A DNA stretch of 64,000 nt from Patescibacteria group bacterium (GCA_038065315.1 JBBTRF010000001.1:464458-528457), one strand, 5' to 3'. Shown: positions 12,023-26,687, numbered from the stretch's first letter. Translations and numbers: made by a program. Notes: generated by a model from the sequence alone, not told the origin.

Positions 12023-12056
12023 GTTTGATAGACATTTGTTGCTAGACCCGATTGTC

Positions 12057-12531: not shown

Positions 12532-12534
12532 AGC

Positions 12535-12562
12535 ACAAGTTTATCTTAAGATAAACTTGTGT
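12535..12562. promoter_or_regulatory. 12-bp perfect palindrome (cacaagtttatc tta gataaacttgtg) 3 nt upstream of the Phd start codon; candidate toxin-antitoxin autoregulatory operator
   Basis: Read directly. Type II toxin-antitoxin promoters are classically repressed through palindromic operators. Confidence 0.5.
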
Positions 12563-12610
12563 CAACCAAGCCTGCCGTCGACAAAACAGACAAAGAAAGC
12601 ATATCAGAGT

Positions 12611-12665
12611 GGCGATAAAGAAACTGCTAAGAAATGTTCAAGAAAAAGCTAATTTTTGATAAAGA
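12611..12665. repeat. Bipartite A-rich repeat, copy 1: AGAAACTGCTAAGAAA-N18-TTTTTGATAAAGA
   Basis: The same two blocks with the same 18-nt spacing recur at 32986-33045. Confidence 0.55.
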
Positions 12666-12687
12666 TTCAACAAAGAAAGTCTAGGGG

Positions 12688-13431
12688 CTACTCCGCTGCA
12701 ACACCGCCCAAAAACACTTTGCTGAGCGTATCGCCCTTGATAATCTCGGCAGCAGGACCGGCAGCCACTACCCTACCCTTGTCGAGTACATAGGCACGAT
12801 GAGCAACTTCGAGAAGAGATTTGATATTGTGCTCCACCACCACGACAGCCATCTTGCGGCGCTGGTTGATCTCGAGGATCTTGGCGAACATTTCCTTCAC
12901 GATCTTCGGAGCAAGACCGAGCGACGGCTCATCGAGCAGGAGGATCTTTGGGTCGGTCATGAGGCCGCGGGCGATCGCGAGCATTTGCTGTTGGCCGCCG
13001 GAGAGATTGGAGGATTTTTCCGAGAGTCGGCTACGTAGTGCCGGGAACAGATCAAGCACCTGCTCGAGACGCTCGGCACGAATCTTTGCAGAAGCGACGG
13101 TCCAGCCGCCGAGTTCGATATTCTCACGGACGCTCAGATGTTTAAACACGCGGCGGCCTTGAGGGACAAATGAAATCCCTCGATGGATCACCTCATGCGA
13201 CACCGGCAAGAAGGTCTGCCCTTCCCAAGAGACCGATCCAGAGCTGATCGGCGCCAAGCCGAAGATCGCCTTGAGTACCGTTGACTTGCCGGCACCGTTT
13301 GGACCCATGAGCGCCACGATCTCGCCTTCATCTATAGACACCGAGGCACCATCAAGAGCCTTCACGCCACCGTAATGGACGTGTAGGTCGCGGGTTTCGA
13401 GAAGGATCTCTCTTTTTACATTATCGGCCAT
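12688..13431 (-). CDS. livF: Branched-chain amino acid ABC transporter ATP-binding protein LivF-like
   Basis: Walker A GPNGAGKST, the ABC signature LSGGQQQ and the Walker B motif LLLDEP. Start set at MADNVK. Confidence 0.85.
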   Translation of the reverse strand: MADNVKREILLETRDLHVHYGGVKALDGASVSIDEGEIVALMGPNGAGKSTVLKAIFGLAPISSGSVSWEGQTFLPVSHEVIHRGISFVPQGRRVFKHLSVRENIELGGWTVASAKIRAERLEQVLDLFPALRSRLSEKSSNLSGGQQQMLAIARGLMTDPKILLLDEPSLGLAPKIVKEMFAKILEINQRRKMAVVVVEHNIKSLLEVAHRAYVLDKGRVVAAGPAAEIIKGDTLSKVFLGGVAAE

Positions 13432-13488
13432 TACGCCTTCAATTCTATCATCGCGGGAGGATGAGGGCGAGCTACTAAACACCGAGCG

Positions 13489-14397
13489 TTAATTCACAGC
13501 CACAGGTTGACCATTCTTGACTTGCTTCAAGATCATTTCCCGCTTCGCCACACCGTTCTCATCAAAGAGACCGGATTTTGAGAGGCTGGATTGGACACAG
13601 ATAGTATCTGCTTTACATTCATCCACTGCTGAAGAGAGAATCTCTGCTGCTTGCTCAGAAAGACCGAACACGGCTCCTTCTCCCTCAGCAATATCTTTCG
13701 GGAAAGAATAAAAAACGTCCGGAACCAAAGTACGGACAACGGGAAGCTCAGCTACGTAAGTAGAGAAGACGGGTGCGACGACACCAAACTGCCTGAGCTT
13801 CGCGACCCCGCCAGCAAAGAAGAATGAAATATCTGGTGAGTAGATCACATCGGGCCTCGAAGCCTTGATCTTCGCCACTTCAGTGGAAATGTCGCCAGTA
13901 TCAGCACCAATCGCAACATGATAGACGATGTCACCCTTAAAATGAGCTCGGAAACTATCGACGTGCGTCTTCGAGAAGGCATTTTGATAGGAGACGAGAG
14001 CAACCCGCTTGTAGCCGCGACGGGTAAGCTCTTCCGCAATGAACTTTGATTCGTCTTCCAGAGAATACTGCACGTTGTAGAGGTTACCCCCGCTCGCTTC
14101 ATAGAGCGTCTTCGAAGCCGCCGATGGTACGAGCGCGAAGTAGTCACCCGCAAACTTCGACAACACTGCACCAATAAGGAAGCTCGCCGCCGCCGTGACC
14201 AGCGCCCCGACGAGCAGTGACAGGAAGAAATTCATCCCCGTGGTCGTGAGCAGGATGCCTGTCGCATAGGCACCGAGGCCGTAGAAGGCCGCGTGTGTCA
14301 CCGAGAGTAGGCCGGTATACCCCACCACCAAGTTGAGCGACAAACCCAAGATCCCGTAGATGCCGATGAGAATGAGGAGGTGAATGAGGTAGTCCAT
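13489..14397 (-). CDS. Chimeric ORF joining a LivM-like permease N-terminus (3 TM helices, through GDYFALV) to the C-terminal two-thirds of a LivK-like periplasmic binding protein
   Basis: N-terminal ~95 aa match the LivM family (MDYLIHLLILIGIYGILGLSLNLVVGYTGLLS...LSKFAGDYFALV). The remainder matches type-I periplasmic binding proteins (...YKRVALVSYQNAF...IKASRPDVIY...FDENG...). No livG gene is present. Confidence 0.6.
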   Translation of the reverse strand: MDYLIHLLILIGIYGILGLSLNLVVGYTGLLSVTHAAFYGLGAYATGILLTTTGMNFFLSLLVGALVTAAASFLIGAVLSKFAGDYFALVPSAASKTLYEASGGNLYNVQYSLEDESKFIAEELTRRGYKRVALVSYQNAFSKTHVDSFRAHFKGDIVYHVAIGADTGDISTEVAKIKASRPDVIYSPDISFFFAGGVAKLRQFGVVAPVFSTYVAELPVVRTLVPDVFYSFPKDIAEGEGAVFGLSEQAAEILSSAVDECKADTICVQSSLSKSGLFDENGVAKREMILKQVKNGQPVAVN

Positions 14398-14628
14398 GAT
14401 ATGCAGGCGCTTGTGCGCCTTTAATCATACCAAAAAAGGCGCTTGACTCATATTTTCGATTTTGCTAACATACTAACTGTGGTACCTCAGGGGCTTCCGG
14501 AAACGGGAGCCCCTTGAAGCTTCTAGTTGGGAAGATAATGTAGAGGCATAAAAAGACCCACCCGCCATTGCTGGCGGGTGGTAACATCTAACACTCTAAG
14601 TATCGCAAAACTGAATTGAAGTGTCAAT

Positions 14629-15496
14629 TTACTTCTTCAAAATCCCCTGCGGCCGGAAGAGCAGGAACAGGATAAGCACAGTGAAGGCAATCGCATCCTT
14701 CCACTCGCCGGAGATGTGCCAAATACCGAAGTTTTCGACAAAGCCGAGGAAAAAAGCGCCGAGTACGCCGCCGTAGATGTTGCCGATGCCGCCGATGATA
14801 CAGGCGATCACGCCTTTGAGGAGTAGCGACATGCCCATGGTCGGCTCAATGCCCGTATCGAAGCCGATGAGAATGCCGGCGAGGCCAGCGATCGCCGAAC
14901 CGATGAGAAACACCTTGCCGATGACTTTGTCAGTGTTGATGCCGACAATCTTGGAAACATCTTCATCGTCGCCCACAGCTCGTACCGCGCGGCCGAACAT
15001 TGTCTTTTTTGAGCACCAGCGCCAATCCGCTCATGATGACCAGTCCCGTCACGAGGATGACGAGCTGGATCTCCGTAATCACTCCCCCGAAGATGTCATA
15101 CACCCGCTGCGCTGAGGAGTTTTGCGAGAGCGTCTGGAATTGGCTGGTGAAGAGGATGGCGATAATGGCCTGCACTGCAGTGAAAGCCCCGAGCGAAGCC
15201 ACCATGAGCACCATGCTGGAGGATTTGCGAGCACGGAGGGGACGATAAACAAAGTGATTGATGAGTCCGCCCACCGCCGCCGCAATGACCACGCCAAGCA
15301 GCACCGCCAGCCACAGATCGAGGCCAAGCATTTTGTAGAAATAGAACACCGCGTAGCCGCCCACCGCAGTGAGCGCACCATAGCCGAGATCGAAGAACTT
15401 CACCGTCCCGAAGATGATATTGAATCCGAGCGCCAGCAGCGAATAGATCGCGCCGGCAATGATGCTGTTCAGGATGAGTTGTGGGAGGATGTCCAT
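14629..15496 (-). pseudogene. livH: livH-like permease disrupted by a frameshift near 14963-15000 at an A6/T6 run
   Basis: Two adjacent ORFs, 14963..15496 and 14629..15000, encode the N- and C-halves of LivH in different frames. The junction is ...VLKK/D... versus ...MFGRAVRAV... at the homopolymer ttttttga. Confidence 0.65.
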
Positions 15497-15511
15497 GTCT
15501 CAATAGTATAG

Positions 15512-15545
15512 CAAAAAACCGCTCGGAGGGAGCGGTTTTTTGCTC
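15512..15545. terminator. Hairpin aaaaaaccgctc-ggaggg-agcggtttttt, a bidirectional intrinsic terminator
   Basis: GC stem flanked by A and T runs, between the liv fragments. Confidence 0.55.
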
Positions 15546-15557
15546 ATTGAGGAAAAA

Positions 15558-16082
15558 TTACTTCGCGTCAACAAGTGCACCATCCTTGACCTGCATCATT
15601 CGCATACCGATACCGGTAACGTCACCATTCTCATCGAATCCAAAAGTTCCAGTAATCCCTGGAAAATCTTTAGTAGCATAGAGAGCCTGCTTGATCTTTT
15701 CAGTATCACTAGCCCCTACTTTTTCAAAGATGGTCGCTAGGAGATAGACCTCGTCATAAGCGTTTGCAGAAAAGAACGGATAGGTTGGTTCAGAGCTGTA
15801 ACGCTTCTTACTTTCCTGCAAGAAAGCGTTGGCTCGGGAGTTTTCAGAGCCAAGTGCCGGAGCATCCACAATATACGCACCTTCCACAGCCATGCCTGTC
15901 TTCACAAACTCAGGACCTGAGAAATATGCTGTGTAGAACTGAGACTTGATACCGAGTGTTCGAGCCTGTTCAGCCAGACGAGCACCGTCTGAACCAGTCT
16001 GGGTATCGATCAGGATCGCCTCATGGCGCGAGAAGCTCGGTATCATCATCGAGAGCCACGAGATCGCCGATGCCATGCGCAA
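15558..16082 (-). pseudogene. Truncated LivK-like substrate-binding protein (C-terminal ~150 aa only)
   Basis: ...ARLAEQARTLGIKSQFYTAYFSGPEF...TGTFGFDENGDVTG... matches the C-terminus of branched-chain amino-acid binding proteins. The N-terminal two-thirds and the signal peptide are absent. Confidence 0.6.
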
Positions 16083-16234
16083 AATCTACGAACTCGCCTG
16101 GGCCGAAGCAAAACGGCTTGACGCCGACCTACGCCTGAAACCATAGCCCTCATTGACACCCATCTCTTAAAAGAATAGGCTTTAAGGCGGATTTGAATCT
16201 GCACTGTTTTGAATCCAGAAAGGAGGCCGAAACT

Positions 16235-16636
16235 ATGTATCTGAATATTCGAGGAATCGAGAACGATCTCTACCCCGAGATTCCCTACTACCGCTTTGTT
16301 TGGGGGCCAGTGATAGAAAAAATGTTGGACTTCAAAGACGAAAAAACTCCCTTCCGCCTCAGAATGGCCAGCACTCACTATCGCGGTGCTTCGGAAAATA
16401 TCCCAGACGACACAGATATAAAGGTGCTTGTCTTTGCGGTTCGAGTTCTGATTGGCACTCCTGACCACTTCTGCTTCGGAGCCCACGTCATCAGCGGCTG
16501 GCCACCATACGAAGGCCGTGTGATTGAGGGCGGCATCATGGACGACGGAAGTGGACTGTTTGTCCTGACTACTCCAGATATCTACCTTCTCGCCGGCTTC
16601 GACCGGACCATAAATAGAGCCGTTTACACGGCCTGA
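16235..16636 (+). CDS. Hypothetical protein (133 aa), no recognisable domain
   Basis: GGAGG Shine-Dalgarno sequence 7 nt upstream of the ATG at 16235; followed by a hairpin plus T-run terminator. Convergent with the liv remnants and fusA. Confidence 0.5.
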   Translation: MYLNIRGIENDLYPEIPYYRFVWGPVIEKMLDFKDEKTPFRLRMASTHYRGASENIPDDTDIKVLVFAVRVLIGTPDHFCFGAHVISGWPPYEGRVIEGGIMDDGSGLFVLTTPDIYLLAGFDRTINRAVYTA

Positions 16637-16653
16637 TACATGGAGTTTTATCG

Positions 16654-16690
16654 CCCCGCAGCTCAGCCGCGGGGTTTTCTTTTGCAGTTT
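16654..16690 (+). terminator. Intrinsic terminator (ccccgcag...cgcgggg followed by ttttctttt)
   Basis: GC hairpin followed by a T-tract immediately after the 16235..16636 ORF. Confidence 0.6.
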
Positions 16691-16772
16691 CGTAATTCAG
16701 GAAAGGCAAAACCGCCTGTTGGCGAAGACCTCGCGCAACTGCAACGGCTCGATATTGACCGAGATATGTAAA

Positions 16773-16884
16773 GAAAACAAAAACACCTTCGGTGAAGACC
16801 TCTCGCAGCCACGTCGGTGGCGAGAGGAGCCAAAATCCTAGCAAGGATTTATGGCGTGTCTTCGACGAAGGTGTTTTTGTTTTC
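16773..16884. repeat. Nested-hairpin intergenic repeat, copy E (27-bp outer stem with 1 mismatch; opposite orientation to A and D); ends 2 nt before the fusA stop codon
   Basis: Arms gaaaacaaaaacaccttcggtgaagac and gtcttcgacgaaggtgtttttgttttc. The reverse complement of the core aligns with copy D (gacacgccat + aaaatcc-ttgcta-ggatttt + ggctcctctcgc...gcgagag). Confidence 0.75.
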
Positions 16885-16885
16885 T

Positions 16886-19030
16886 CTACTTCCTCGCTTC
16901 AATAATCTGCTGCTCCACAAACTTCGGCACCGGCGCGTAATGGTCGAATTCCATCGTCGCTGAACCCTGTCCTGAAGTCATAGATCGGAGCTGAGTAGTG
17001 TAACCGAACATTTCGGACAACGGCACCTTTGCGTGCATTACCTTGGCCTGACCGCGCTCGGTCATTTCTTCGATCGTACCTCGCTTTGAAGAAATGCTGC
17101 CGGTGATATCACCCATAAACTTCTCTGGGAACAATACCTCCACCTTCATGATTGGTTCCAAAATAACCGGCTTCGCACGCTTTGAGGCGCTCTGGAAGGC
17201 CAATGAACCGGCGATCTTGTACGCGATTTCAGATGAGTCGACATCGTGGTAGCTACCGAACGTCAATTCACAAGACACGTTCACCATGCGGTATCCGGCG
17301 ATAACACCTCGGTCCATCGCTTCGTGCACACCCTTCTCCACTGCAGGGATGAATTCGCCAGGGATCGCACCGCCCTTGATAGAGTTAATGAATTCGAAGT
17401 CGGCAAATCGGCTGACATTCTTCTTCACCTTCTCGCCTTCTTCCAACGGCTTCATCGGTCGGAGAGTGATGATAACGTGACCGTACTGACCCTTTCCTCC
17501 GGTCTGCTTGATGTACTTCTCTTCCGCCTCTGCCTCGCCCTGAATCGTCTCTCGATATGCCACCTGAGGCTTGCCGACGTTGGCCTCGACACCGAATTCT
17601 CGCTTCATACGATCCACCATGATTTCCAAGTGAAGTTCACCCATACCTGAGATGATCGTCTCGCCTGTTTCAGAGTTGGAACTGATCTTGAAAGTCGGAT
17701 CTTCATTTGCGAGCTTCTTCAAAGCCACGCCCATCTTTTCCTGGTCGGCCTTGGTCTTTGGCTCGACGCGCAACGACACCACTGGCTCCATGAACTTGAT
17801 CGCTTCGAGGATAACTGGATTTTCTTCGTCACAAAAGGTGTGCGAAGTAAGGGCGTCTTTGAGACCCACCGCAGCGGCAATCTCTCCGGCGTACACTTTC
17901 TTCACTTCCTCGCGCTCGTTGGCCTGGAGGCGCACGATACGACCCAATCGCTCGCGCTTGCCGGTGGTTGAGTTATACAAATACGTACCAGACTCCACAG
18001 TACCCGAGTACACGCGGAAGAAAGTCAGTTGCCCAACAAAAGGATCGTTCTGGAGTTTGAAGGCCAAGGCACAGAAAGGTTCCTCATCTGAAGGCTTGCG
18101 GAAGATGTGGTCACCCGTGTTTGGATCAATGCCTCGTACCGGGGGAAGGTCAAGGGGAGATGGAAGATAATCAACGACGGCGTCCAATACGAGCTGCACA
18201 CCCACATTCTTGAGCGCAGAACCAGTAAACACTGGGAAGATCTTTCCAGCAAGCACCGCCTTTCGGACCACTCGCTTGATCTCATCGATCGAGATCTCCT
18301 TCCCTTCCAAATATGCCGACATGGTCGCCTCATCGTATTCTGCCACTCGGTCAATGAGTTCAGCTCGATACTTCTTTGCATCTTCGAGCATGTCTGCAGG
18401 AATCTCCTGTTCAATAATCTTAATACCCTTCTCACCTTCGAAGGTGTAGGCCTTCATCTTCACGAGGTCGACAACACCACGATGATCACCCTCCAAGCCA
18501 ATAGGCAGCTGGAATCGGATCGCATTTTTGTTCAATCGCTCGAGAATAGAGGCATATGAGCGCTCAAAAGACGCGCCGGTTCGGTCCATTTTGTTGATGA
18601 AGCAAAGTCGAGGAACATTGCTTTCGTCGGCATAGCGCCAGTTGGTCTCAGACTGTGGCTCTACTCCCGCCACGCCGTCGAATACCACCACAGCACCGTC
18701 GAGTACTCTGAGAGAACGCTTCACTTCTACGGTAAAGTCGATGTGCCCTGGAGTGTCAATGATGTTGAAACGCACCTTCTTTGAAACATCCTCCTTTGGC
18801 ATGTAGGTAGGGTTCCAGAAACAGGTGATCGCCGCGGCGGTAATAGTAATACCTCGCTCTCGCTCCTGCTCCATCCAGTCGGTAGTGGTCTCGCCCTCGT
18901 GCACCTCGCCGATCTTGTGGATCATACCTGTGTAGTACAGGATTCGCTCTGATGTGGTGGTTTTTCCCGCATCAATGTGCGCGATAATGCCGAAATTACG
19001 TACTTTTTCGAGTGGATAGTCTCTGTTCAT
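16886..19030 (-). CDS. fusA: Elongation factor G
   Basis: 714 aa with AHIDAGKTT, DTPGHIDF and the EF-G domains IV and V; full length. Confidence 0.97.
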   Translation of the reverse strand: MNRDYPLEKVRNFGIIAHIDAGKTTTSERILYYTGMIHKIGEVHEGETTTDWMEQERERGITITAAAITCFWNPTYMPKEDVSKKVRFNIIDTPGHIDFTVEVKRSLRVLDGAVVVFDGVAGVEPQSETNWRYADESNVPRLCFINKMDRTGASFERSYASILERLNKNAIRFQLPIGLEGDHRGVVDLVKMKAYTFEGEKGIKIIEQEIPADMLEDAKKYRAELIDRVAEYDEATMSAYLEGKEISIDEIKRVVRKAVLAGKIFPVFTGSALKNVGVQLVLDAVVDYLPSPLDLPPVRGIDPNTGDHIFRKPSDEEPFCALAFKLQNDPFVGQLTFFRVYSGTVESGTYLYNSTTGKRERLGRIVRLQANEREEVKKVYAGEIAAAVGLKDALTSHTFCDEENPVILEAIKFMEPVVSLRVEPKTKADQEKMGVALKKLANEDPTFKISSNSETGETIISGMGELHLEIMVDRMKREFGVEANVGKPQVAYRETIQGEAEAEEKYIKQTGGKGQYGHVIITLRPMKPLEEGEKVKKNVSRFADFEFINSIKGGAIPGEFIPAVEKGVHEAMDRGVIAGYRMVNVSCELTFGSYHDVDSSEIAYKIAGSLAFQSASKRAKPVILEPIMKVEVLFPEKFMGDITGSISSKRGTIEEMTERGQAKVMHAKVPLSEMFGYTTQLRSMTSGQGSATMEFDHYAPVPKFVEQQIIEARK

Positions 19031-19102
19031 ATATGTTTAGTGATAGGCGTTAGACTACAGGAAAAGGGCGAAAAATGCAACGCTATCGGGCGATTGGGGC
19101 CC

Positions 19103-19915
19103 TTATTTCCCCATAGTATAAAGGCGCTTAACCTCGGCTGAGGAGAGAGTGCGATTATAGATCCGGACCTCATCAATTTCACCCAAGTAGTCATTGTTAC
19201 AAACACTGTCACCGATGCGCAATGGCGCCGCATTGACGAGATCGAGGATATCCACACCTGATGCACTATTGTCGAACACGCCATCAACATAGGCGCTGAG
19301 CGTTACACCATCCCGGACAGCCACTCCATGATGCCACTCCCCGTCATTTACGACGGCATTACTTGCTACGCAGGTCAAATTACCTAGAGCATCATCTATG
19401 CAGGCCGAAAATGTACCGGCTGCAATATCGACCTCCCAGAAACTATCATTGAGGCAGACATCGCGAACAGAAACAAGACGCACGCCGCCACCAGCAAAGG
19501 TCGTTTTGAACCAAACTGAGACTGAAAATGGACCTGTGCCGAAATCGTAGGAAGAAACATTCTCTCCTTCTAAATAATCAATTGCGCCGTCTTCAAAGTT
19601 GAGACCTTGTCCGATCCTTCCAGGCACTAGTGCGGTAGTGGTCGGCATATCGATCATAAAGAGATTATTACCAATACCACTGCGATCGTACACCGTCCCG
19701 CCAATCATGTCCGGGCCATTGAAAGACCAGTATCCCGTCAATCCACCTCTAAGGGTCGCGTCAGGGGTAGTATTCACTTTCAATCGGGTCAGGGAAGCCA
19801 TCACCTTCGATGTCCACGAATTAGAAAGGAACGTCCAGCTAGCCTCTACCGTAATCGGCAGAAACCAGCAAGAGAGACTGAGAAGAAGGACGCTGATCGC
19901 GGAGTGGTACTTCAT
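19103..19915 (-). CDS. Secreted LamG-like (concanavalin A-like lectin/glucanase) domain protein
   Basis: Signal peptide followed by a LamG pattern (GYWSFNG...DRSG.GNN...FSVSVWFK...WHHGVAVRDG...LSAYVDGV...IDEVRIYNRTLSSAEVKRLY). Confidence 0.75.
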   Translation of the reverse strand: MKYHSAISVLLLSLSCWFLPITVEASWTFLSNSWTSKVMASLTRLKVNTTPDATLRGGLTGYWSFNGPDMIGGTVYDRSGIGNNLFMIDMPTTTALVPGRIGQGLNFEDGAIDYLEGENVSSYDFGTGPFSVSVWFKTTFAGGGVRLVSVRDVCLNDSFWEVDIAAGTFSACIDDALGNLTCVASNAVVNDGEWHHGVAVRDGVTLSAYVDGVFDNSASGVDILDLVNAAPLRIGDSVCNNDYLGEIDEVRIYNRTLSSAEVKRLYTMGK

Positions 19916-19917
19916 AG

Positions 19918-21720
19918 CTATTGTTGTGGATCAGAAGGGCTGAAAGGATTCGCGACGATTACCGTGCGCGTCGAGGTTGCGGCATTGCCAGATAGATCAG
20001 TCGCTACGTAGGTAATGATGTAGTTTCCGACGGCGGCGGTGTCGATTTGATCACCCGAAACAACAACGGAGAGATTGTTGTCCCGATTGTCGGCCACGAG
20101 TGCACCAAGATCGGAATACACTGCACCGACCAGAAGGTTGGCTGGATTGTTTCCTTGGATGGTGATTGTCGGGGGCTCAATATCGGGTGCCAAGACCAGC
20201 GCAGGAGCGTCAACTACAGCAGGAGAGGTCGAGGAGATACTCGTACCGCCATAGCTTCGGAGAAGTGCCTTGAGCTGCTCTTTCTCTATGCACACATCAT
20301 CGACACATAGACGCTGGCTGACACGAAGTGTATCGGAAGTTGGGACAGAGACGGAAGATAGGGTGTTGTTTCGGATCGAATTGATCTGCGCTTGCTGCTC
20401 TTGGATTGCCCTTACGAGAACTGGGGTTAATTCTTCATACCGAACACCTCGAGGGGTAATGCCGTCAATTTCAGTAAATATCAGTCTTGAATCGACGCGT
20501 GCCACCTCTTCCGCAATGAAACCGAAGCGGGACTCATTGTTGCTATTTGAATTAAACGTGATCGGCCGCAGCTGGCCGATGAGAGTAAGAGCTGGACCAT
20601 CAAACGTCTCTATGTTGTGTTTGAAGCGAGCAGAAGAAACAGTGCAATTGGTGGCACCCGTGTTCACTAAAATTTCCTTTGTCGACGCATTAATACAGAC
20701 CGCGTCCGAAGTCGCACTTGCTAGAGTCAAGCCATCTACGGCCATCGACCCCACCACTGAAAGTGTCTTCCAAGGAGAAGTGCTGGCAACGCCCACTCTT
20801 CGGCTCCAGGACGGCACCGCGCCGGCGCCATCTGACTCTGCATACACGGTGAAAAGCGAGTTGCCGTCGATCCTAGCCGAGTAACTCTCGACCGTGCTGG
20901 AAGCGGCAGTGGCAGTGATGGGCATATCGATCCAGGCAACAATCCCGGCGTTGGTATCAAAGGTCATTGGACCAACCTGAAGATCGTCCACCGAGGTGAC
21001 GCCGCTCGAAAAATCATACTGAAAGGATCCGCCGCCAACAGAGAGACCTCCCGATAACGTGGAAGTAGCGGTAGTTGAAGTGGCGCTTAAATTGCGGAAA
21101 ACTCCCTCGCCTATCACAGAGAGCTTCGCGTAGGGAGAGGTGGTGCCAATGCCAATATTTCCCGCCTGACTCACAAACAGACTCGAAGTCGCCGTCAGCG
21201 TCGTCCCCGAGCCGTTGTAGAAAGGAAACTGACCTTGGGTGCCTGAATTCACCGTCCCAGACCCACCGCTTCCGGAAATACAAGTACCTCCCACAGCGAA
21301 GCAACCGGCAGCCAGATTAATGCCGCCAGTTCCGTAAAAAGTCGTGGTAGCAGTAGTAAAATTAGCCAAGCTCCCGATGGAAAGAATGCTCCCAGGCGTG
21401 GTGGTACCGATACCGACGTATCCACCGGAATTAACAATGAAATCGGTCTGCGTGGAAGATCCAATCGCAAAAGATGGCCCGCTGATGCCACTCGGATTGA
21501 TAGAAAACAAACCCCACGGCGAGGTGGTAGAGACACCGAAATTCCCAGACGCAGTTGAAGCATTCACCTGGAGCACAATACAACTAGCATTAGTCGGCGC
21601 ACAGCCTGGATCCAGTGTTTCGCCCGGCGCAAATGAGGCGGAAACGCTCGATGGGAGGGCGAAAAAAGAAACAGATGCACTGAAACAAACAAACGCGCTT
21701 GTGAAAAGAAAGCGTCTCAT
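19918..21720 (-). CDS. Secreted Gly/Thr/Ser-rich fibre-like protein with an internal peptidase-S74 intramolecular-chaperone domain followed by a C-terminal DUF5011-type Ig-like domain
   Basis: Signal peptide and (G.IGIGTT.P...L.V.G)-type repeats. The S74 motif is ...ARFKHNIETFDGPALTLIGQLRPITFNSN...GFIAEEVARVDSRLIFTEIDGITPRGVRYEELTPVLVRAIQEQQAQIN, and the C-terminal ~130 aa match DUF5011 (...VVSGDQIDTAAVGNYIITYVATDLSGNAATSTRTVIV). Confidence 0.7.
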   Translation of the reverse strand: MRRFLFTSAFVCFSASVSFFALPSSVSASFAPGETLDPGCAPTNASCIVLQVNASTASGNFGVSTTSPWGLFSINPSGISGPSFAIGSSTQTDFIVNSGGYVGIGTTTPGSILSIGSLANFTTATTTFYGTGGINLAAGCFAVGGTCISGSGGSGTVNSGTQGQFPFYNGSGTTLTATSSLFVSQAGNIGIGTTSPYAKLSVIGEGVFRNLSATSTTATSTLSGGLSVGGGSFQYDFSSGVTSVDDLQVGPMTFDTNAGIVAWIDMPITATAASSTVESYSARIDGNSLFTVYAESDGAGAVPSWSRRVGVASTSPWKTLSVVGSMAVDGLTLASATSDAVCINASTKEILVNTGATNCTVSSARFKHNIETFDGPALTLIGQLRPITFNSNSNNESRFGFIAEEVARVDSRLIFTEIDGITPRGVRYEELTPVLVRAIQEQQAQINSIRNNTLSSVSVPTSDTLRVSQRLCVDDVCIEKEQLKALLRSYGGTSISSTSPAVVDAPALVLAPDIEPPTITIQGNNPANLLVGAVYSDLGALVADNRDNNLSVVVSGDQIDTAAVGNYIITYVATDLSGNAATSTRTVIVANPFSPSDPQQ

Positions 21721-21732
21721 GGATGCGGTTAA

Positions 21733-23679
21733 TTATAGCACGACCTTTTCTTCGATCACGCCGTTTTTTGCCAAAAATACGGGCGATGTGTGGACAAGAG
21801 TATATGTCTCGTCGGGATTTTTCTTCTCCACCGTGAGGTAGTACTCGCCCGGCGGCACCAAGGCATAGAAATGGCCGAGACGGTCTGTCACTTTGTGTAG
21901 TAACTCTTGGTTTGGGCCGGCAATATATACGCGGATGATCGCAAAGGCAATTGGCAAATCCGTGGAGCTATCCATCACGCTGGCAAATGCCTTTTTCTTG
22001 GCACCAAAGATTCTCAAGAGGAGTAGGCAAACATAGAGAGCGAAGATGGCGATGTTGTATGGAGCCGGTGCTGCCCAGAATGCAAGGACGGCCACGAAAA
22101 AGCCGACGGAGAAGGAAGCGTCGGTGATGCGCTTTTTGATGAGGTCGCGCTTCGAGTAAAAACGCGAAATCTGCTGTTGTGATTTAGCAAATTCATTCCA
22201 ATCGAAATTCACGGGGTCCAGCGGGATGTTTTTGATGAGTACTCCGCCCGCTTCCAAGGCAGTGATCGGTTCACCGAAATAAAGGTCTGAGTAGAGCTCA
22301 TCCGCCATCTTTCCGGCCAATTTCTTCGAGGGAAATGTGTAGTTGGTCTTGTTGGCGACCATGGTGTATGTGCCGGACGCGAGCAAGAAGCCATAGCGGC
22401 CATCGAGGTCGGTAATCGACGTATTGACCTCGTTCCCCTTCTCATCTTGCAAGACCACGTACGCGGGGTCGAGCGGCTGCTTGGTAACGCTGTCATACAC
22501 AGTACCCCACGGACGAGAACGTTTTTTCAGGCCAAAAGCCCCGAGCAAGATTCCCCACAATCGGAGTGGGATGAGAAACAGCTCGGAAAATGACAGCGGG
22601 TTCAAGAAAAGCGATGAAACGCTGGCCGCACCCGCGCCGACCACGCCCGCCGTCGACACCGTCTTGGTCACCACCGAGCCAGTTGGACTCTGGATCACTT
22701 CTTTTGTCTCCTCCGCCACAACCTTTACCGTCTCTTGGGCGAATTCATAGCTTTGCTTTACCTGCTCGACAGCACCGGAGACGATTTGCGTGACCGCACC
22801 TCCTCCGCCGCCACCGCCACTCGAACCGGAGCCTGAACCTGAAGAGCCGCTACTACCGCTATCACCACCAAAAAAGTTGGCGATGCTCGAAAAGACACTA
22901 TCGACAGTCGCGGCCACGGACTCGACGGCCGACTCAACCACCGATGGAGTTTCTGCCTCGGCCGGAGGGGCTTCAGATGGAGTATCTTCTGGTGGCGCCA
23001 CATCGGGAGCTGGCGCCGGAGACTCTGCCGGAGCTTCAGATGGTGCCGGTGAGGACTCCGCCGCTGGCGCAGACGACTCTGAAGAAGAGCTACTAGATTC
23101 TCCGCTACTGCTCGAGCTTGAACTCGAACCTGATCCGGAACCACCACCCCCTCCGCCGCCACCACCACCGCCGCCACCTGAAGAAGCACCGCGAACGCTC
23201 GCAGGGCGCCAATCTGTGGCCACATTAAATGAACCCGAGCCGCAGGTGCTGTTTGTGCTGCAATTAAACACGATCCAGCCAGTGTTTTGACCCCAAGCGT
23301 AGCCGGAAAAGACTCCCGAAGAGCTGATCACGACTCGAACACCGCTGGCGGATGGATGGAAATTAATCCAGCCAGTGTTTTGGCCCCAAGCGTAGCCGGA
23401 AAGATTGCCGCTACCGTCATTTACCACCCCGTAGCCAGTCGGATTAAGGTTGATCCAGCCATAGTAGTCGCTCCACACGTAGCCGGTCATCGCGCTGTCG
23501 GTGACGTGCACATCTCCTTCCGTCGTGCCGAAATTGAACGTACCGAAATTGGTATCAACGGCCTTGGCATAGAAATTTCCTGGCTCAATGATGCCGTTGG
23601 TGTCTGAGGCGTGCACAGAAATCGAGCCAGACGAAAGGATAGACAGCACAACCAAAAGAAAGAGGGCGACTCTTGTCAT
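21733..23679 (-). CDS. Secreted/membrane-anchored repeat protein: three GYAWGQNTGWINF-type repeats, a Gly13/Ser-rich low-complexity linker, two TM helices each followed by a carboxypeptidase-regulatory-like beta-sandwich
   Basis: Repeats GYVWSDYYGWINLNP, GYAWGQNTGWINFHP and GYAWGQNTGWIVFNC; a (GGN)13 codon run at 23137-23176; two hydrophobic helices; CarboxypepD_reg-like segments (...GTVYDSVTKQPLDPAYVVLQDEKGNEV...DLDGRYGF...). Confidence 0.65.
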   Translation of the reverse strand: MTRVALFLLVVLSILSSGSISVHASDTNGIIEPGNFYAKAVDTNFGTFNFGTTEGDVHVTDSAMTGYVWSDYYGWINLNPTGYGVVNDGSGNLSGYAWGQNTGWINFHPSASGVRVVISSSGVFSGYAWGQNTGWIVFNCSTNSTCGSGSFNVATDWRPASVRGASSGGGGGGGGGGGGGSGSGSSSSSSSSGESSSSSSESSAPAAESSPAPSEAPAESPAPAPDVAPPEDTPSEAPPAEAETPSVVESAVESVAATVDSVFSSIANFFGGDSGSSGSSGSGSGSSGGGGGGGAVTQIVSGAVEQVKQSYEFAQETVKVVAEETKEVIQSPTGSVVTKTVSTAGVVGAGAASVSSLFLNPLSFSELFLIPLRLWGILLGAFGLKKRSRPWGTVYDSVTKQPLDPAYVVLQDEKGNEVNTSITDLDGRYGFLLASGTYTMVANKTNYTFPSKKLAGKMADELYSDLYFGEPITALEAGGVLIKNIPLDPVNFDWNEFAKSQQQISRFYSKRDLIKKRITDASFSVGFFVAVLAFWAAPAPYNIAIFALYVCLLLLRIFGAKKKAFASVMDSSTDLPIAFAIIRVYIAGPNQELLHKVTDRLGHFYALVPPGEYYLTVEKKNPDETYTLVHTSPVFLAKNGVIEEKVVL

Positions 23680-23741
23680 ACTTCCCTATTCTACCGCGCT
23701 ACTGCAAAATGCGGAACGGATATCTCGCTAGCAGCAAAAAA

Positions 23742-24272
23742 CTAGAACCCACTGAACATTGCCATCATCATCCACATAAACAAAATGACGCAGAGGATGA
23801 TCACCCCTGGAGAAAGTCGGCCGCCGCGCTTCAAAAGTGGGCTGTTCTCACGCTCGAGGCAAGTGAGTACGATTACAAATGAAGAGAATGCGATGACCGC
23901 GAGAGAGCTGAGTGATTTATAGAGAATTGCTTTATCGGTAATAATCTCCCAAATGCTACAGACCCCGAGAAATGCGAGAAGAACGGCCGAAACGATGAGA
24001 GCGCCGAGAGTGGCAATGCGCACAATCCTGAAGGTCGGATTTGGCACCGCGGGAACAGGAGGGTTCAGAGGATCTACCGCCTCTCCGCCGCCAACAAAAC
24101 GCCCGGCCACCATCACTACCACTGCAACAACGGCCAAAATACCGAGGGTCGCAAATGATTTCGAAATAACCTCTTTGTTAAAAACGTCCCAAACCCCAAG
24201 AATAGAAATGAGGGACAGGACACTCACGGCTCCAATAAAGATTCCCGAAGCGATATTTTGAATGGTTTTCAT
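23742..24272 (-). CDS. Small integral membrane protein with an internal tandem duplication (2 x 2 TM)
   Basis: The two halves align (IASGIFIGAVSVLSLISILGVWDVFNKEVISKSF... versus IATLGALIVSAVLLAFLGVCSIWEIITDKAILYKSL...). Start set at MKTIQN. Confidence 0.55.
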   Translation of the reverse strand: MKTIQNIASGIFIGAVSVLSLISILGVWDVFNKEVISKSFATLGILAVVAVVVMVAGRFVGGGEAVDPLNPPVPAVPNPTFRIVRIATLGALIVSAVLLAFLGVCSIWEIITDKAILYKSLSSLAVIAFSSFVIVLTCLERENSPLLKRGGRLSPGVIILCVILFMWMMMAMFSGF

Positions 24273-24607
24273 AAAGGAAATTGTACGTCGGTACCCGGAA
24301 ATTGGCAATGGAAAGAAAAACGGACACCTTTCGGCGTAATGTGGGGATACGCAGGTGTCCGTCGGTTAGAAGAAAGAAGAAACAGTAGGGTTGGTTTCGT
24401 CGGGTTCCTTTTTTCTGTTAACTCTCAAGTCGTCGCCCGAGCGCAAAAGCATCAGGTCCGACCTGCCTATAGGTGTACAAGGCCTCGGAAGATATTCCGC
24501 CACGTCGGCCACATCACAACCAAAGGTTGTGGCCTTTTTCTCCCTTGCCATCTTGCAACCCACTCAATCTTGGCCTTTCAGCGCCGATTTGTCAAAATTT
24601 CTGACAA

Positions 24608-24874
24608 CTAGCCCCACAAGTCGCTATGCGTACCCACGTCGACAAGCAAGTAGAAGGAGTTTTCAATCTCCCTGTATAGTATTCGATAGTCGCCAGTTGC
24701 GTTGATACTGCGACAATCCTTGTTTCTGCCTAATAATTTATGATTGTTGAGAATCGGACTGAATTCATCTTGCACGAAAATTCTGAGCCGATCCGAGACC
24801 TTCTCCCGGATCTTGAGTGGCAGTTTTCTGAAGTGCCGTTCGAATTCCGATGATCTAATAATAGTAACTGCCAT
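24608..24874 (-). CDS. YafQ/RelE-family type II toxin (mRNA interferase)
   Basis: 88 aa ending ...GRNKDCRSINATGDYRILYREIENSFYLLVDVGTHSDLWG, a YafQ-like C-terminal catalytic region. Confidence 0.8.
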   Translation of the reverse strand: MAVTIIRSSEFERHFRKLPLKIREKVSDRLRIFVQDEFSPILNNHKLLGRNKDCRSINATGDYRILYREIENSFYLLVDVGTHSDLWG

Positions 24875-24889
24875 TTCGAAAGAACAGAA

Positions 24890-25162
24890 TTAGGAGTTAA
24901 GATCAGCCAAAAGGTCTTCGATATCGGTGAACTTCTTCAACTTTCCTGAAGCGAGCTCCTTTTCCGCAATCTCGATAGACCGAAGAAGTCTTCGTGTCGG
25001 TCGAAGATTCATCGAGAAAGACACCTCCTTCGTGCGCACAAATTGCCTCAAATACGCATTTACGATCGTACCAAGCTGAAAACCGAGCTCCTCAGCTGTT
25101 TTTTGAGCAGCTACCTTCAATCTTTTATCTACTTTTGTTGTCATAAGCGTAGTAGTATTCAT
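24890..25162 (-). CDS. DinJ/RelB-family antitoxin
   Basis: 90 aa starting at the internal Met MNTTTLMTTKVDKRLKVAAQKTAEELGFQLGTIVNAYLRQFV..., a DinJ pattern. The listed ORF's 5' extension, which overlaps a repeat and a terminator, was rejected. Confidence 0.8.
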   Translation of the reverse strand: MNTTTLMTTKVDKRLKVAAQKTAEELGFQLGTIVNAYLRQFVRTKEVSFSMNLRPTRRLLRSIEIAEKELASGKLKKFTDIEDLLADLNS

Positions 25163-25176
25163 ATACCAAAGTATAT

Positions 25177-25190
25177 ACCTAGGTATAGTA
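25177..25190. promoter_or_regulatory. 14-bp perfect palindrome tatacctaggtata upstream of the DinJ-YafQ operon; candidate operator
   Basis: Read directly; lies 15 nt upstream of the antitoxin start. Confidence 0.45.
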
Positions 25191-25204
25191 TCTGTCAACA
25201 AAGA

Positions 25205-25230
25205 AAAAACCGCTTCCCAGCGGTTTTTTC
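25205..25230. terminator. Bidirectional intrinsic terminator aaaaaaccgc-ttccca-gcggtttttt
   Basis: GC stem with an A-run on one side and a T-run on the other, downstream of rpsG. Confidence 0.7.
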
Positions 25231-25248
25231 TAATCGCGGAGAGGAGCT

Positions 25249-25328
25249 TTTTCAAAGGGACTGCGGAGCGCGACTGGCGCGAGCCGGAGCAAAATTTCAC
25301 CAGAAATTTATGCGTACCCTTTGAAAAA
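25249..25328. repeat. Nested-hairpin intergenic repeat, copy B (12-bp outer stem tttttcaaaggg / ccctttgaaaaa; same orientation as C and E)
   Basis: Core actgcggagcgcgactggcgcgagccggagc + aaatttc-acca-gaaattt + atgcgtaccc, near-identical to copy C at 39297 apart from compensatory hairpin changes. Confidence 0.75.
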
Positions 25329-25340
25329 CTCCTTGTAGCG

Positions 25341-25811
25341 CTACCAAGCGAAGTGCGCAAACGCCTTGTTGGCCTCTGCCATCTTGTGAGTGTTCTCACG
25401 CTTCTTCACGGCCTCGCCTTCGTTCTTCATGGCGAGCATGATCTCTTCCGCGAGCTTCAAGTGCATTGGCTTGCCCTTCTTCGCTCGAGCAGCATCAACA
25501 ATCCACTTGATCGAGAGCGCCTGTCGTCGGTCTGGTCGGACTTCGATTGGTACCTGATAGTTGGCGCCTCCCACACGACGAGATTTCACCTCCACCATCG
25601 GTGCAGTGTTCTTCAGCGCGTTCTCAAAATACTCCAAAGGATTTTCTACCTTAGCAGTCTCCTTGATAGTGTCGAATGCTCCGTACACAATCTTTCGAGC
25701 GGCATTCTTCTTACCTCGCTCCATACAATAGTTGATCAACTTCCCTACTTTCTGGGAGCTGTACACGCTGTCAGGGGATACGATATTACGATTTTTGGCT
25801 TTTCGTCTCAT
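25341..25811 (-). CDS. rpsG: 30S ribosomal protein S7
   Basis: 156 aa; canonical S7 ([35 protein letters not shown]...). Confidence 0.95.
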
Positions 25812-26239: not shown

Positions 26240-26552
26240 AGTGAAATGCAAATAAATAAACCGATTTTAATAATGACGATGATTAAATTCTGCTTCGCCG
26301 CGCGGAGATCTGTGTGGCTTCACCCTTTGCTTCCGAGGATTACTCACAGATTCCTGATGGTTGTGGCTGAATTATGAAGCTTTTTGGAGCTTGGCGAGCT
26401 CAGGCGAACCTGTTGGGCCGCGCTTTGCTCCGAGAAAAGCGTCCCCGTACTCTACTATAGAGAGGGGTTTTGCGCAAATATAACGCCTTGAACCCCCCTG
26501 AAACACGGCAAGAGCGTTACGCGAGGAGGCGCGCGGTGTTTTTGAGTAGGTG

Positions 26553-26604
26553 CGGATTTTTCATACTTTCTCATACACATTCATACAAAGTATGAAAAAT
26601 CCGC
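26553..26604. terminator. 18-bp perfect-stem hairpin (gcggatttttcatacttt ... aaagtatgaaaaatccgc) with a 16-nt loop, downstream of folD
   Basis: Read directly; sits between the folD stop and the rpsL upstream region. Confidence 0.5.
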
Positions 26605-26687
26605 AGGTACTCTTTTTCACTCCACCACCCCCCTCCAAAATGAAAGCCGCAGGATGTTGCACCTGCGGCGAGCTTTCGCTACCAAAC

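Follow-up and report, generated by a model that had tools for sequence, protein, structure and literature searches.

Among the closest known systems to the locus described here is the S74 subgroup of the MAT (mosaic adhesive trimer) fibres of Bdellovibrio bacteriovorus, a predatory bacterium that carries these S74 adhesins on its cell surface (Caulton et al. 2024, PMC10769870). What the two have in common is a chromosomal, non-phage gene whose product carries a signal peptide, a long Gly-rich fibre and an S74 chaperone/protease domain with a Ser...Lys motif. The bearers also resemble each other: a life in attachment to other cells is assumed for CPR/Patescibacteria, and Bdellovibrio likewise depends on contact with other cells. 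To our knowledge, the attachment proteins of CPR are almost entirely uncharacterised, and a literature search on CPR in connection with S74 fibres, CarboxypepD_reg proteins or interrupted ribosomal operons brought up no relevant work.

Here, we analyse a 6.3-kb block of six genes that interrupts the str operon of a Patescibacteria group bacterium between rpsG and fusA. The block is probably a resident, fast-evolving cell-surface locus of an uncultivated lineage of Paceibacteria (Patescibacteria/CPR). It would then occupy a str-operon spacer that tolerates insertions and consist of cassettes that are gained and lost separately. Judging from domains and gene order, its most likely function would be attachment to a host or substrate.

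Layout of the rpsG-fusA spacer

The block runs on the minus strand from the rpsG stop (25341) to the fusA start (19030) of the window, by which we mean the whole 64,000-nucleotide stretch of DNA that was analysed. Its features and their flanks, in minus-strand order, are as follows.

25341..25811, minus: rpsG (ribosomal protein S7), upstream backbone (Pfam Ribosomal_S7, E = 1.7e-57)
25243..25332, minus: structured three-way-junction hairpin ('repeat B'), about 9 nt after the rpsG stop (RNA fold -36.7 kcal/mol, z = -4.7)
25204..25229, minus: intrinsic terminator after rpsG and the hairpin, AAAAAACCGC-TGGGAA-GCGGTTTTTT, read from the sequence
25170..25198, minus: sigma-70-like promoter of the toxin-antitoxin cassette, TTGACA-17-TATACT, 11/12 matches
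24890..25162, minus: RelB/DinJ-family antitoxin, 90 aa from the first ATG (TIGR02384, Pfam RelB)
24608..24874, minus: RelE/YafQ-type toxin, 88 aa (ParE_toxin, TIGR02385)
24316..24607, minus: non-coding tail of the toxin-antitoxin cassette, with a terminator at 24316-24360
23742..24272, minus: small membrane protein, 176 aa, five hydrophobic segments, start ATG at 24272
21733..23679, minus: 648-aa membrane protein (Pfam CarboxypepD_reg; AlphaFold; Foldseek)
19918..21720, minus: 600-aa secreted fibre protein (Peptidase_S74, Bact_surface_Ig-like)
19103..19915, minus: 270-aa secreted Laminin_G_3 (concanavalin-like) protein (PF13385)
16886..19030, minus: fusA (EF-G), downstream backbone (domain scan; 97% identical in the close relative L165)

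The host fusA is 60-85% identical to those of Patescibacteria/Paceibacteria metagenome-assembled genomes. Gene calls and domain scans bear out the six-gene order given by a first-pass annotation of this DNA: the genes are real, on the minus strand and in the positions listed. The same annotation held that all products are secreted or membrane proteins, which is true of the surface-type genes but fails for the toxin and antitoxin, since neither has a signal peptide or a membrane segment.

These two genes form a predicted type II toxin-antitoxin pair of the RelBE / DinJ-YafQ type, as had been claimed for this place. The antitoxin scores 37.3 against a cut-off of 45.65 for TIGR02384 (E = 2.4e-9) and 20.7 against 22.4 for Pfam RelB (E = 3.9e-4). 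The toxin exceeds the curated cut-offs of TIGR02385 RelE_StbE (28.8 vs 27.9) and Pfam ParE_toxin (25.5 vs 23) and falls under the YafQ-specific ones (YafQ_toxin, 29.1 vs 30; TIGR00053, 15.4 vs 87); its PDB matches, to H. pylori HP0892/HP0894 and RelE, are weak. As in E. coli DinJ-YafQ and HP0892/HP0894, the antitoxin gene comes first (same strand, 15 nt between the two), each protein has about 90 aa, and the pair has its own promoter. The C-terminal GTHSDLW motif of the toxin resembles YafQ and HP0892, although, unlike in YafQ, one catalytic histidine appears by eye to be replaced. The cassette is a clean indel of about 0.9 kb that adjoins the rpsG terminator and carries its own promoter and terminator. 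The antitoxin is 94-100% identical in L167 and L172 and absent from L165 and L169, and the TTGACA-17-TATACT promoter accompanies the cassette in L167 and is missing from L165. About 230 nt of the non-coding tail, which has no match in Rfam (24316-24607), are lacking in L167, with the terminator retained. The pair may be a selfish or stabilising passenger, mechanistically unlinked to the surface genes.

Cassette turnover among relatives and the hairpin

Was the block delivered as one unit, as the first-pass annotation proposed? In five genomes of one genus-level group (rpsG of L165, L167, L169 and L172 98-99% identical to that of the window), the rpsG-fusA spacer contains the 648-aa gene with an S74 fibre gene behind it. 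In L165 (fusA 97%, rpsG 99%) the order is rpsG, hairpin, terminator, small membrane protein (84%), 648-aa homologue (70%), a 1659-aa S74 fibre and fusA, with the LamG gene absent; homology to this genome at the nucleotide level picks up again on the fusA side at window position 19082. In L167 and L172 the order is rpsG, hairpin, terminator, the toxin-antitoxin pair (94-100% / 84%, the first value being that of the antitoxin), a 648-aa homologue (78-79% identical over residues 296-648) and the start of a fibre gene, and in L169 it is rpsG, a 648-aa homologue (67%) and a fibre; the contigs of L167, L169 and L172 stop shortly after the 648-aa gene. The terminator at 25204-25229 is conserved in L165 and L167. 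A three-way junction alignment resolves the cassette indels to a single base. The block is thus neither present nor absent as a whole, each of the four relatives having part of it in the position that it takes here. Presence or absence varies independently for the toxin-antitoxin pair, the small membrane protein and the LamG gene. The toxin-antitoxin cassette, the LamG gene and the fibre allele differ between genomes with 97-100% identical backbones, and the fibre gene has been replaced or reshuffled between genomes with 97% identical fusA.

More distant relatives share the backbone M50-rpsL-rpsG-fusA-tuf. In L081 and L177 the 648-aa/fibre pair is found between M50 and rpsL, in L175 between fusA and tuf, and L043 and L056 have the 648-aa homologue without the fibre in the M50-rpsL / fusA-tuf positions. 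Across 63 species the rpsG-fusA spacer measures anywhere between 10 and 7389 bp and holds unrelated cargo; the rpsG-fusA and fusA-tuf spacers are routinely filled in this clade. The 648-aa family has more than 1000 homologous proteins in Patescibacteria, and a homologue lies within 10 kb of fusA in 3-4 of 80 species-representative genomes, so that linkage to the str region is confined to a sub-clade. The homologues become less similar at the pace at which housekeeping genes diverge, a sign of vertical descent.

These comparisons bear directly on the proposal that the block is a horizontally acquired accessory island, a surface 'armoury' plus an addiction module, inserted whole between rpsG and fusA. 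The spacer is indeed a variable hot spot, toxin-antitoxin pairs are common passengers of mobile DNA, the GC content of this pair is 0.43-0.45 against about 0.51, and a genome whose fusA is 97% identical differs in fibre allele and LamG gene. However, in close relatives the 648-aa and fibre genes hold this site too and the differences concern single genes, and the toxin-antitoxin cassette has indel boundaries of its own. Nor is there a signature of mobility. Pfam, NCBIfam and PHROG scans find no integrase, transposase or transfer gene among the six products, and it is rpsG and fusA that border the block; 19.0-25.4 kb is not enclosed by direct repeats; no tRNA adjoins the block, the tRNAs of the window lying only at 55.7-59.8 kb; and the hairpin beside rpsG has no counterpart beside fusA. 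Composition is ordinary: tetranucleotide z-scores are -0.32 to +1.13 in four 3-kb segments inside the block, and GC content is 0.49-0.55 for the block genes against 0.51-0.52 for rpsG/fusA, with only the toxin-antitoxin genes lower. Insertion as a whole island is therefore largely refuted and, in our view, very unlikely; what stands of it is that the str operon is interrupted at a spacer highly variable in this clade.

The hairpin had been taken, together with the terminator, as the upstream boundary of the block. Both elements are present, but the repeat does not flank the block: its five copies are dispersed in the window, with none at the fusA end. The copies are intergenic and lie mostly directly past stop codons. 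Each has a conserved apical core of about 57 nt and a long outer stem (16-35 bp) that is different in every copy; the hairpin comprises three helices, with covariation. Orthologous hairpins follow rpsG in L165, L167, L172, L004 and L068, with compensatory changes in their stems. In a scan of the window against Rfam the gathering score was reached by tRNAs only, and permissive scans of three hairpin copies gave chance-level matches only. A viral scan with a DNA pattern of the core returned 23 matches, 0 of which were confirmed by the covariance model. The pair counts of G·U (37) and A·C (26) do not discriminate action as RNA from action as DNA. As a multi-copy intergenic hairpin found mostly behind stop codons, the repeat resembles REP/BIME/REPIN palindromes and intrinsic terminators; unlike REP elements, and in fact in reverse of them, it has a conserved core and a variable outer stem, and the protein scans turned up no gene for a RAYT-like transposase. 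We regard the hairpin as a candidate new structured element, absent from Rfam, and the family merits separate study as such.

The surface proteins and their possible function

The 648-aa protein begins with a signal peptide, an ectodomain (29-160) with three GYAWxxxxGWI β-repeats of about 30 aa each, and a disordered Gly/Ser/Pro stalk (165-300). The remainder consists of a transmembrane segment (364-381), a transthyretin-like domain (392-490), a transmembrane hairpin (510-559) and a second transthyretin-like domain (566-648). The AlphaFold model has pLDDT > 90 in the folded domains, and Foldseek matches transthyretin and CnaB folds. The first-pass description of a GW-like repeat protein does not hold: Pfam finds CarboxypepD_reg as the sole family and no GW / SH3-like domain over the full length, and residues 1-166, which include the repeats, give no family match even at E <= 1. 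The protein is 70% identical to its L165 homologue overall, with differences mostly in the low-complexity linker 165-300. A tblastn result by which L167 and L172 would lack the N-terminal domain, as in a domain swap, was rejected when a profile search found the domain.

The small membrane protein had been described as a tandem-duplicated 4-TM protein; it is a membrane protein, but with the five hydrophobic segments listed above and an internal duplication that is weakly detectable (E = 0.23). It has a promoter-like site of its own at 24280-24308 and no family in Pfam, NCBIfam or PHROG scans. L167, L172 and L169 have no room for its gene, and the small genes beside the 648-aa/fibre pair in L177 and L081, considered as possible homologues, are not homologous to it.

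The fibre protein is correctly called an S74-chaperone protein. Its order is signal peptide, Gly-rich region with GIGTT(T/S)P motifs, S74 domain, long helix and C-terminal Ig-like domain, and the match to Peptidase_S74 (PF13884) scores 34.2 bits against a cut-off of 22 (residues 362-409). Within the motif S362-S-A-R-F-K367, Ser362 and Lys367 are each at least 90% conserved in an alignment of 40 homologues, and the dyad is thus kept. Foldseek matches the K1F intramolecular chaperone 3gw6 (probability 0.9) and the Bdellovibrio MAT fibres 8ojn, 8onc and 8ond; the AlphaFold monomer model of residues 30-360 is of low confidence (pLDDT 40-60). Because the S74 domain is internal, followed by a linker and the Big_3/DUF5011 Ig-like domain (519-589), unlike in characterised S74 proteins, self-cleavage of the fibre is a prediction. 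The fibre is the most divergent gene of the locus, and the 1659-aa fibre of L165 stands in its place. Variation driven by a DGR was considered and rejected, the block containing no reverse transcriptase and no template/variable repeat pair.

The last gene before fusA encodes, as the first-pass annotation had it, a secreted LamG-lectin-like protein, with Laminin_G_3 at residues 122-263 (PF13385, 86.8 bits against a cut-off of 27.6, E = 2.2e-24) and a signal peptide. Its ATG lies 2 nt past the fibre stop codon, and in L081 a LamG orthologue (57%, 270 aa) lies directly behind the fibre orthologue with a 4-nt overlap. In CPR metagenome loci, a same-strand fibre-like gene lies upstream of LamG in 14 of the 26 with enough upstream sequence and downstream in 0 of 24. 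The relatives found by the metagenome scan with the LamG alignment, which supplied the loci for this gene order, are at most 39% identical and so do not represent orthologous loci.

A prophage or tailocin remnant, in which the fibre and LamG genes would be leftover tail-fibre and baseplate genes, has some matches to offer: in PHROG the 600-aa protein hits tail-fibre families (phrog_1980, E = 2.5e-14) and the LamG protein hits LamG domains that belong to baseplate and virion proteins, and NCBI names fibre homologues 'tail fiber domain-containing protein'. We nevertheless consider a phage origin of this kind extremely unlikely. Genes for capsid, portal, terminase, sheath, lysis or integration are absent from the block and its vicinity, translation genes flank it, and PHROG matches are limited to the fibre, LamG and the toxin-antitoxin pair, with none for the 648-aa or small membrane proteins. 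The IMG/VR matches to the fibre cover the S74 segment only, at 30-36% identity. Moreover, the fibre is paired with the non-phage 648-aa gene in the window and in several of the relatives examined (L084, L165, L169, L175 and L177), and the 648-aa, fibre and LamG proteins have Sec signal peptides, which virion proteins normally do not.

It is just as improbable that the LamG protein and its neighbours are type IV pilus accessories, that is, pilus-tip or minor-pilin adhesins working with pilB/pilC 14-20 kb away. The window does contain pilC (39399-40616) and pilB (40647-42401), a LamG protein with a prepilin N-terminus lies directly upstream of fusA in L025, and the L002 rpsG-fusA spacer holds a pilin-like gene. 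However, the block contains no pilin gene, and its LamG protein has an ordinary signal peptide that ends VEA|S, with no prepilin motif.

A more serious alternative is that the 648-aa protein and fibre are structural or biogenesis parts of the envelope (S-layer-like) rather than host-interaction adhesins. The 648-aa family is very widespread, its differences from the closest homologue fall mostly in the linker, and the locus sits among translation genes. By the positive-inside rule, both transthyretin-like domains would be cytoplasmic, a prediction that fits an envelope/housekeeping role as well as an adhesin anchor. On the other hand, the fibre is hypervariable, in its length as in its sequence, where the backbones are almost identical; LamG and Ig-like domains are of the kind typically used for binding; and the closest characterised cellular S74 fibres are adhesins (PMC10769870). 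We consider this housekeeping role unlikely.

If the locus serves attachment, as we favour, its products could work as follows. The 648-aa, fibre and LamG proteins, whose signal peptides all end in A-x-A-type sites, would be exported via Sec. The fibre would trimerise with the aid of its S74 intramolecular-chaperone domain and cut itself at Ser362 by means of the Ser362/Lys367 dyad, freeing a chaperone-plus-Ig tail while the N-terminal fibre remains. The LamG protein, probably translationally coupled to the fibre gene, would form a binding module together with the fibre. The 648-aa protein would be the conserved membrane partner, anchored by three membrane helices and displaying its β-repeat domain on a long flexible stalk. 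The three proteins might then jointly attach to a host cell or substrate, with specificity altered by turnover of the fibre and LamG cassettes.

A broader proposal can be made only tentatively. Perhaps the 648-aa protein, S74 fibre and coupled LamG protein are a dedicated Paceibacteria attachment apparatus, analogous to the Bdellovibrio MAT fibres and kept in the str/ribosomal super-operon, and the hairpin-marked spacers (3' ends of rpsG and fusA; upstream of tuf) are permissive sites that swap adhesin and toxin-antitoxin cassettes without a dedicated recombinase in the locus.

Comparison with known systems

The locus offers a testable candidate set, namely a conserved membrane partner, a fibre predicted to process itself and a lectin-like protein coupled to it; Bdellovibrio provides a characterised analogue. 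It also suggests that adhesins may vary by cassette turnover at a fixed site within an essential operon, and it counsels caution in island calling, because even a large insertion within a ribosomal operon may be something other than mobile DNA.

In its genomic organisation the block resembles the flexible genomic islands of O-antigen and capsule loci, which likewise occupy a fixed site between conserved genes, have ordinary composition and no mobility genes, and replace surface determinants between close relatives. Unlike those loci, it lies in the str ribosomal/translation operon, encodes proteinaceous fibres instead of glycan-synthesis enzymes, and has a conserved anchor gene adjoining the variable gene.

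With the chaperone domains of the K1F endosialidase (3GW6) and the T5 L-shaped fibre (4UW8), the fibre shares the Peptidase_S74 match and the catalytic Ser and Lys; unlike phage tailspikes and tail fibres, it has a Sec signal peptide and no phage context. The MAT fibres, too, differ. In MAT proteins the S74 domain ends the protein, whereas here the Ig-like Big_3/DUF5011 domain follows it; the dyad motif is SSARFK here and SDxxxK in characterised members; and the fibre has 600 aa against about 1000 in MAT proteins. Finally, the fibre of this locus, unlike MAT, has two partners, a multi-pass membrane protein that is conserved and a LamG gene coupled to the fibre gene.

Cassette structure of the rpsG-fusA block

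The minus strand of the window carries, in order, genes for an M50 peptidase, FolD, rpsL, rpsG, a 6.3-kb block, fusA, about 5 kb of other DNA, tuf, rpsJ and rplC. The EF-G encoded at 16886-19030 shares 60-85% identity with that of uncultivated Patescibacteria (Paceibacteria/Parcubacteria), with Ca. Taylorbacteria and Ca. Zambryskibacteria among the named relatives. The first-pass annotation had described the block as an accessory island of six open reading frames, and these are present in the order that it gave:

24890-25162, minus strand, antitoxin gene, RelB/DinJ-like
24608-24874, minus strand, toxin gene, RelE/YafQ-like
ATG at 24272, minus strand, small membrane protein gene
21733-23679, minus strand, 648-aa protein gene
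19918-21720, minus strand, 600-aa fibre gene with Peptidase_S74 and Bact_surface_Ig-like domains
19103-19915, minus strand, 270-aa gene with a Laminin_G_3 domain (LamG)

All six are real genes, not chance ORFs, as judged by their long reading frames, strong family matches and hundreds to thousands of homologues. The small membrane protein (176 aa), whose start was placed by alignment with the close relative L165, has five hydrophobic segments instead of the four assigned to it, and its supposed tandem duplication is weakly detectable. Nor are all of the products secreted or membrane proteins, since the antitoxin and toxin have no export signal.

Close relatives were identified via homologues of the 648-aa protein, with L165 and L167 belonging to the same genus as the window. 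In L165 (GCA_037130265.1), whose fusA, rpsG and tuf are 97%, 99% and 97% identical to those of the window, rpsG is followed by a hairpin, a terminator, the small membrane protein (84%), a 648-aa homologue (70% identity overall, with most differences in a low-complexity linker), a 1659-aa S74 fibre and fusA; this spacer has neither a toxin-antitoxin pair nor a LamG gene. Two further relatives, L167 (GCA_974945995.1) and L172, keep M50, FolD, rpsL, rpsG, hairpin and terminator in order on the backbone side. There, the toxin-antitoxin pair (94-100% / 84%) comes next after the rpsG terminator and is followed by a second terminator; beyond this lie the 648-aa homologue and the first part of a fibre gene. 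Neither genome has the small membrane protein gene at this site. In a fourth relative, L169, rpsG is accompanied by the 648-aa homologue and a fibre gene (N-terminal part 57-65% identical).

A three-way junction alignment resolves the toxin-antitoxin cassette as a cleanly bounded indel of about 0.9 kb, made up of a promoter (TTGACA-17-TATACT, 25170-25198), two genes, a tail and a terminator, with the rpsG terminator on one side and the promoter of the small membrane protein gene on the other. The latter gene is likewise cleanly missing at the aligned junction in L167. These clean indels argue that the block is a mosaic, in which cassettes are gained and lost independently around a conserved 648-aa gene and fibre gene.

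At both ends of the toxin-antitoxin indel (about 25201-25210 and 24312-24320), a terminator T-tract is followed by a TTGACA/TTGCCA promoter box, the junction sequences being …GTTTTTTCTTTGTTGACA… and …GTTTTTCTTTCCATTGCCA…. This similarity may reflect a short direct repeat from insertion, or only a terminator-promoter grammar common to the cassettes. The cassette also contains about 230 nt of non-coding DNA between the toxin stop codon and the terminator (24361-24607). L167, whose cassette is otherwise 90% identical, lacks this stretch, which folds moderately better than shuffles (z = -2.7) and has no match in Rfam.

Was the block delivered as one unit, as the first-pass annotation proposed? The usual signatures of mobility are absent: there is no integrase or transposase among the products, no direct repeat brackets the block, and no tRNA lies near it. 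Tetranucleotide usage shows nothing unusual (z = -0.3 to +1.1), with the toxin-antitoxin genes alone somewhat AT-richer, and the relatives vary cassette by cassette at the rpsG-fusA site. In addition, similarity of the 648-aa protein declines along with housekeeping divergence, as vertical descent would predict. Where the backbone (fusA or rpsG) is 97-99% identical, the homologue is 67-79% identical, falling to 58% at a backbone identity of 76% and to 25-44% at 65-69% (identities partly over partial alignments). The term accessory therefore suits the toxin-antitoxin cassette, the LamG gene and the fibre allele, but not the block as a whole. The original observation was largely right and its mobile-island reading wrong: the block is a resident, cassette-structured surface-protein locus with a toxin-antitoxin passenger in a permissive str-operon spacer.

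Spacers of the ribosomal operons across the clade

The backbone of SOD, L28, M50, rpsL, rpsG, fusA, tuf and rpsJ is conserved across the clade, and members of the block recur in two others of its spacers. The 648-aa/fibre pair occupies the M50-rpsL spacer in L081 and L177, and a 648-aa homologue stands alone in that spacer in L043 and in the fusA-tuf spacer of L056. In L175 (GCA_034521025.1, 1016-11987), the fusA-tuf spacer holds a 648-aa homologue between giant S74 fibre genes (1992 and 1009 aa). The 648-aa family lies within 10 kb of fusA in only 3-4 of 80 species representatives, and its linkage to the str region is thus confined to a sub-clade.

The rpsG-fusA spacer is itself a general hot spot. 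Its length in 63 species varies from 10 to 7389 bp (median 226 bp), exceeding 500 bp in 24 and 4 kb in 4, and the cargo there is unrelated: pilins, a subtilase, a P-type ATPase, a reverse transcriptase, a LamG protein, and PIN and DUF2283 parts of toxin-antitoxin systems. The fusA-tuf spacer is filled more often (median 1717 bp). In the window, this spacer (11729-16885) contains a decayed operon for a branched-chain amino-acid ABC transporter, in which LivF is complete, a frameshift divides LivH (14629-15000 and 14963-15496), 13489-14397 is a LivM/binding-protein chimera ORF and 15558-16082 encodes a truncated binding protein. A 147-aa ORF of no known family is also present, and two inverted hairpin copies (68 nt, 79% complementary) bracket the region; L165 has a Phd/YefM-type pair in place of the transporter operon. 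The S10 operon is interrupted too, between rplB (7529-8377) and rpsS (4824-5195). This insert (5196-7528) carries an APH-family kinase gene (6541-7461), a RelB antitoxin gene (6239-6505, E = 8.7e-15), an NYN-domain gene on the opposite strand (5446-5940) and one hairpin copy. For the ribosomal super-operon of this genome, insertions seem to be the norm.

A family of three-way-junction hairpins

The repeat taken as the upstream boundary of the block, repeat B, does exist just after rpsG. It is not an att site of the block but belongs to a dispersed, structured element with five copies in the window:

5229-5339, plus strand, hairpin copy
11902-12029, plus strand, hairpin copy
16768-16889, minus strand, hairpin copy
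25243-25332, minus strand, hairpin copy (repeat B)
39289-39398, minus strand, hairpin copy, directly after pilC

The copies span 90-130 nt, with a long outer stem (16-35 bp) that is different in each, and a conserved core of about 57 nt with two small hairpins inside (…ACGC-RTAAA-hairpin-TTTYGCTCC-hairpin…). Fold z-scores run from -4.7 to -11.3. Covariation is strong: in 24 copies, 85.5% of cells pair versus 60% in shuffles (none of 500 shuffles as high) and 39-54% in slid controls, and helix 2 has compensatory changes in all nine of its pairs. Covariance models found 30 copies in about 17 related genomes, and none in 80 other CPR loci or in viral contigs; the hairpin matches no Rfam family.

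Orthologous hairpins follow rpsG in L165, L167, L172, L004 and L068, follow fusA in L165 and L001, and lie antisense about 200 nt upstream of tuf in L165 and L046, with further copies in L047, L006 and others. Most copies begin no more than about 60 nt from a stop codon on their own strand (after mis-called antisense ORFs were corrected by hand), and the element probably acts at mRNA 3' ends. The family may represent a novel structured RNA, or else a small element whose insertion sites are the loops of long terminator hairpins. Plain, near-perfect long hairpins occur after rplB (7478-7535) and in the FolD-rpsL gap (26544-26612), with 26-27-bp stems and A-tract/T-tract arms that resemble the outer stems of the element without its core. 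Their presence would fit an origin of the element by insertion of the core into terminator hairpins that already existed.

Predicted surface proteins of the block

All three large proteins have signal peptides with A-x-A-type site ends. The 648-aa protein had been called GW-like, a label that does not hold: CarboxypepD_reg is its sole Pfam match, and the N-terminal repeat region matches no Pfam family even at E <= 1. In an AlphaFold model built on 80 homologues, the signal peptide is followed by a confident β-rich ectodomain (29-160) containing three GYAWxxxxGWI repeats and by a Gly/Ser/Pro stalk (165-300) modelled as disordered. Beyond the stalk, a membrane helix (364-381) leads into the first of two transthyretin-like domains (392-490), which a membrane hairpin (510-559) separates from the other (566-648); Foldseek backs the transthyretin/CnaB fold.

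The fibre gene is the hypervariable member of the block. Despite the 97%-identical fusA, the L165 fibre matches the 600-aa fibre only piecewise (34-55%), and the best full-length database matches are merely 47-51% identical. Independent assemblies of related genomes (L167, L168, L172-L174 and L169-L171) break no more than a few hundred bases past the 648-aa gene, where the fibre gene begins. Contigs tend to end in this way when strains vary within a metagenome, and the breaks suggest strain-level hypervariability, or fibre-gene repeats, in natural populations.

The LamG gene starts 2 nt past the fibre stop codon. An orthologue directly after a fibre orthologue was found only in the more distant L081, where it is 57% identical, also 270 aa long, and overlaps the fibre gene by 4 nt. 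Among LamG loci of CPR metagenomes, where the LamG part is often a multi-domain array, a same-strand fibre-like gene lies upstream in 14 of 26 and downstream in none of 24, a gene order that points to the fibre and LamG proteins as a functional pair. Among the products, the conserved 648-aa protein stands out as the candidate membrane partner, given its three membrane helices and the ectodomain on its stalk. In other CPR metagenome contigs, LamG_3 domains form in-frame tandem arrays of up to 14 downstream of fibre-like genes (L108, 1727-12556; L104, L096, L086 and others), a large multi-lectin architecture.

The fibre itself has Gly-rich repeats with GIGTT(T/S)P motifs, and its S74 domain carries Ser362 and Lys367, both retained by at least 90% of 40 homologues. 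Structural matches of the fibre model include the K1F intramolecular chaperone (3gw6) and the MAT fibres of Bdellovibrio. The latter are S74 adhesins that are encoded on the chromosome, displayed at the surface and able to cleave themselves at the catalytic serine (PMC10769870). From these features and matches, the fibre would be expected to trimerise with chaperone assistance and to cleave itself at Ser362, which would release the chaperone together with the C-terminal Ig-like domain.

Such domains could also mark a prophage or tailocin remnant, a reading that we reject or down-weight: the PHROG matches are at the domain level only, no further phage genes accompany them, and relatives in IMG/VR align only over the S74 segment (30-36% identity). 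A role as pilus accessory genes is similarly disfavoured, since the LamG protein of the window lacks a prepilin motif, in contrast to the LamG-pilin of locus L025. Type IV pilus and secretion genes lie at 37329-42401, 14-20 kb from the block (pilB-like ATPase, 40647-42401; pilC-like, 39399-40616). The main rival to attachment is a structural role of the block proteins in the envelope. CPR bacteria are presumed to live as epibionts, and an attachment role would fit that lifestyle. The members of the block come from known families, and the useful leads are the gene partnership and the hairpin family.
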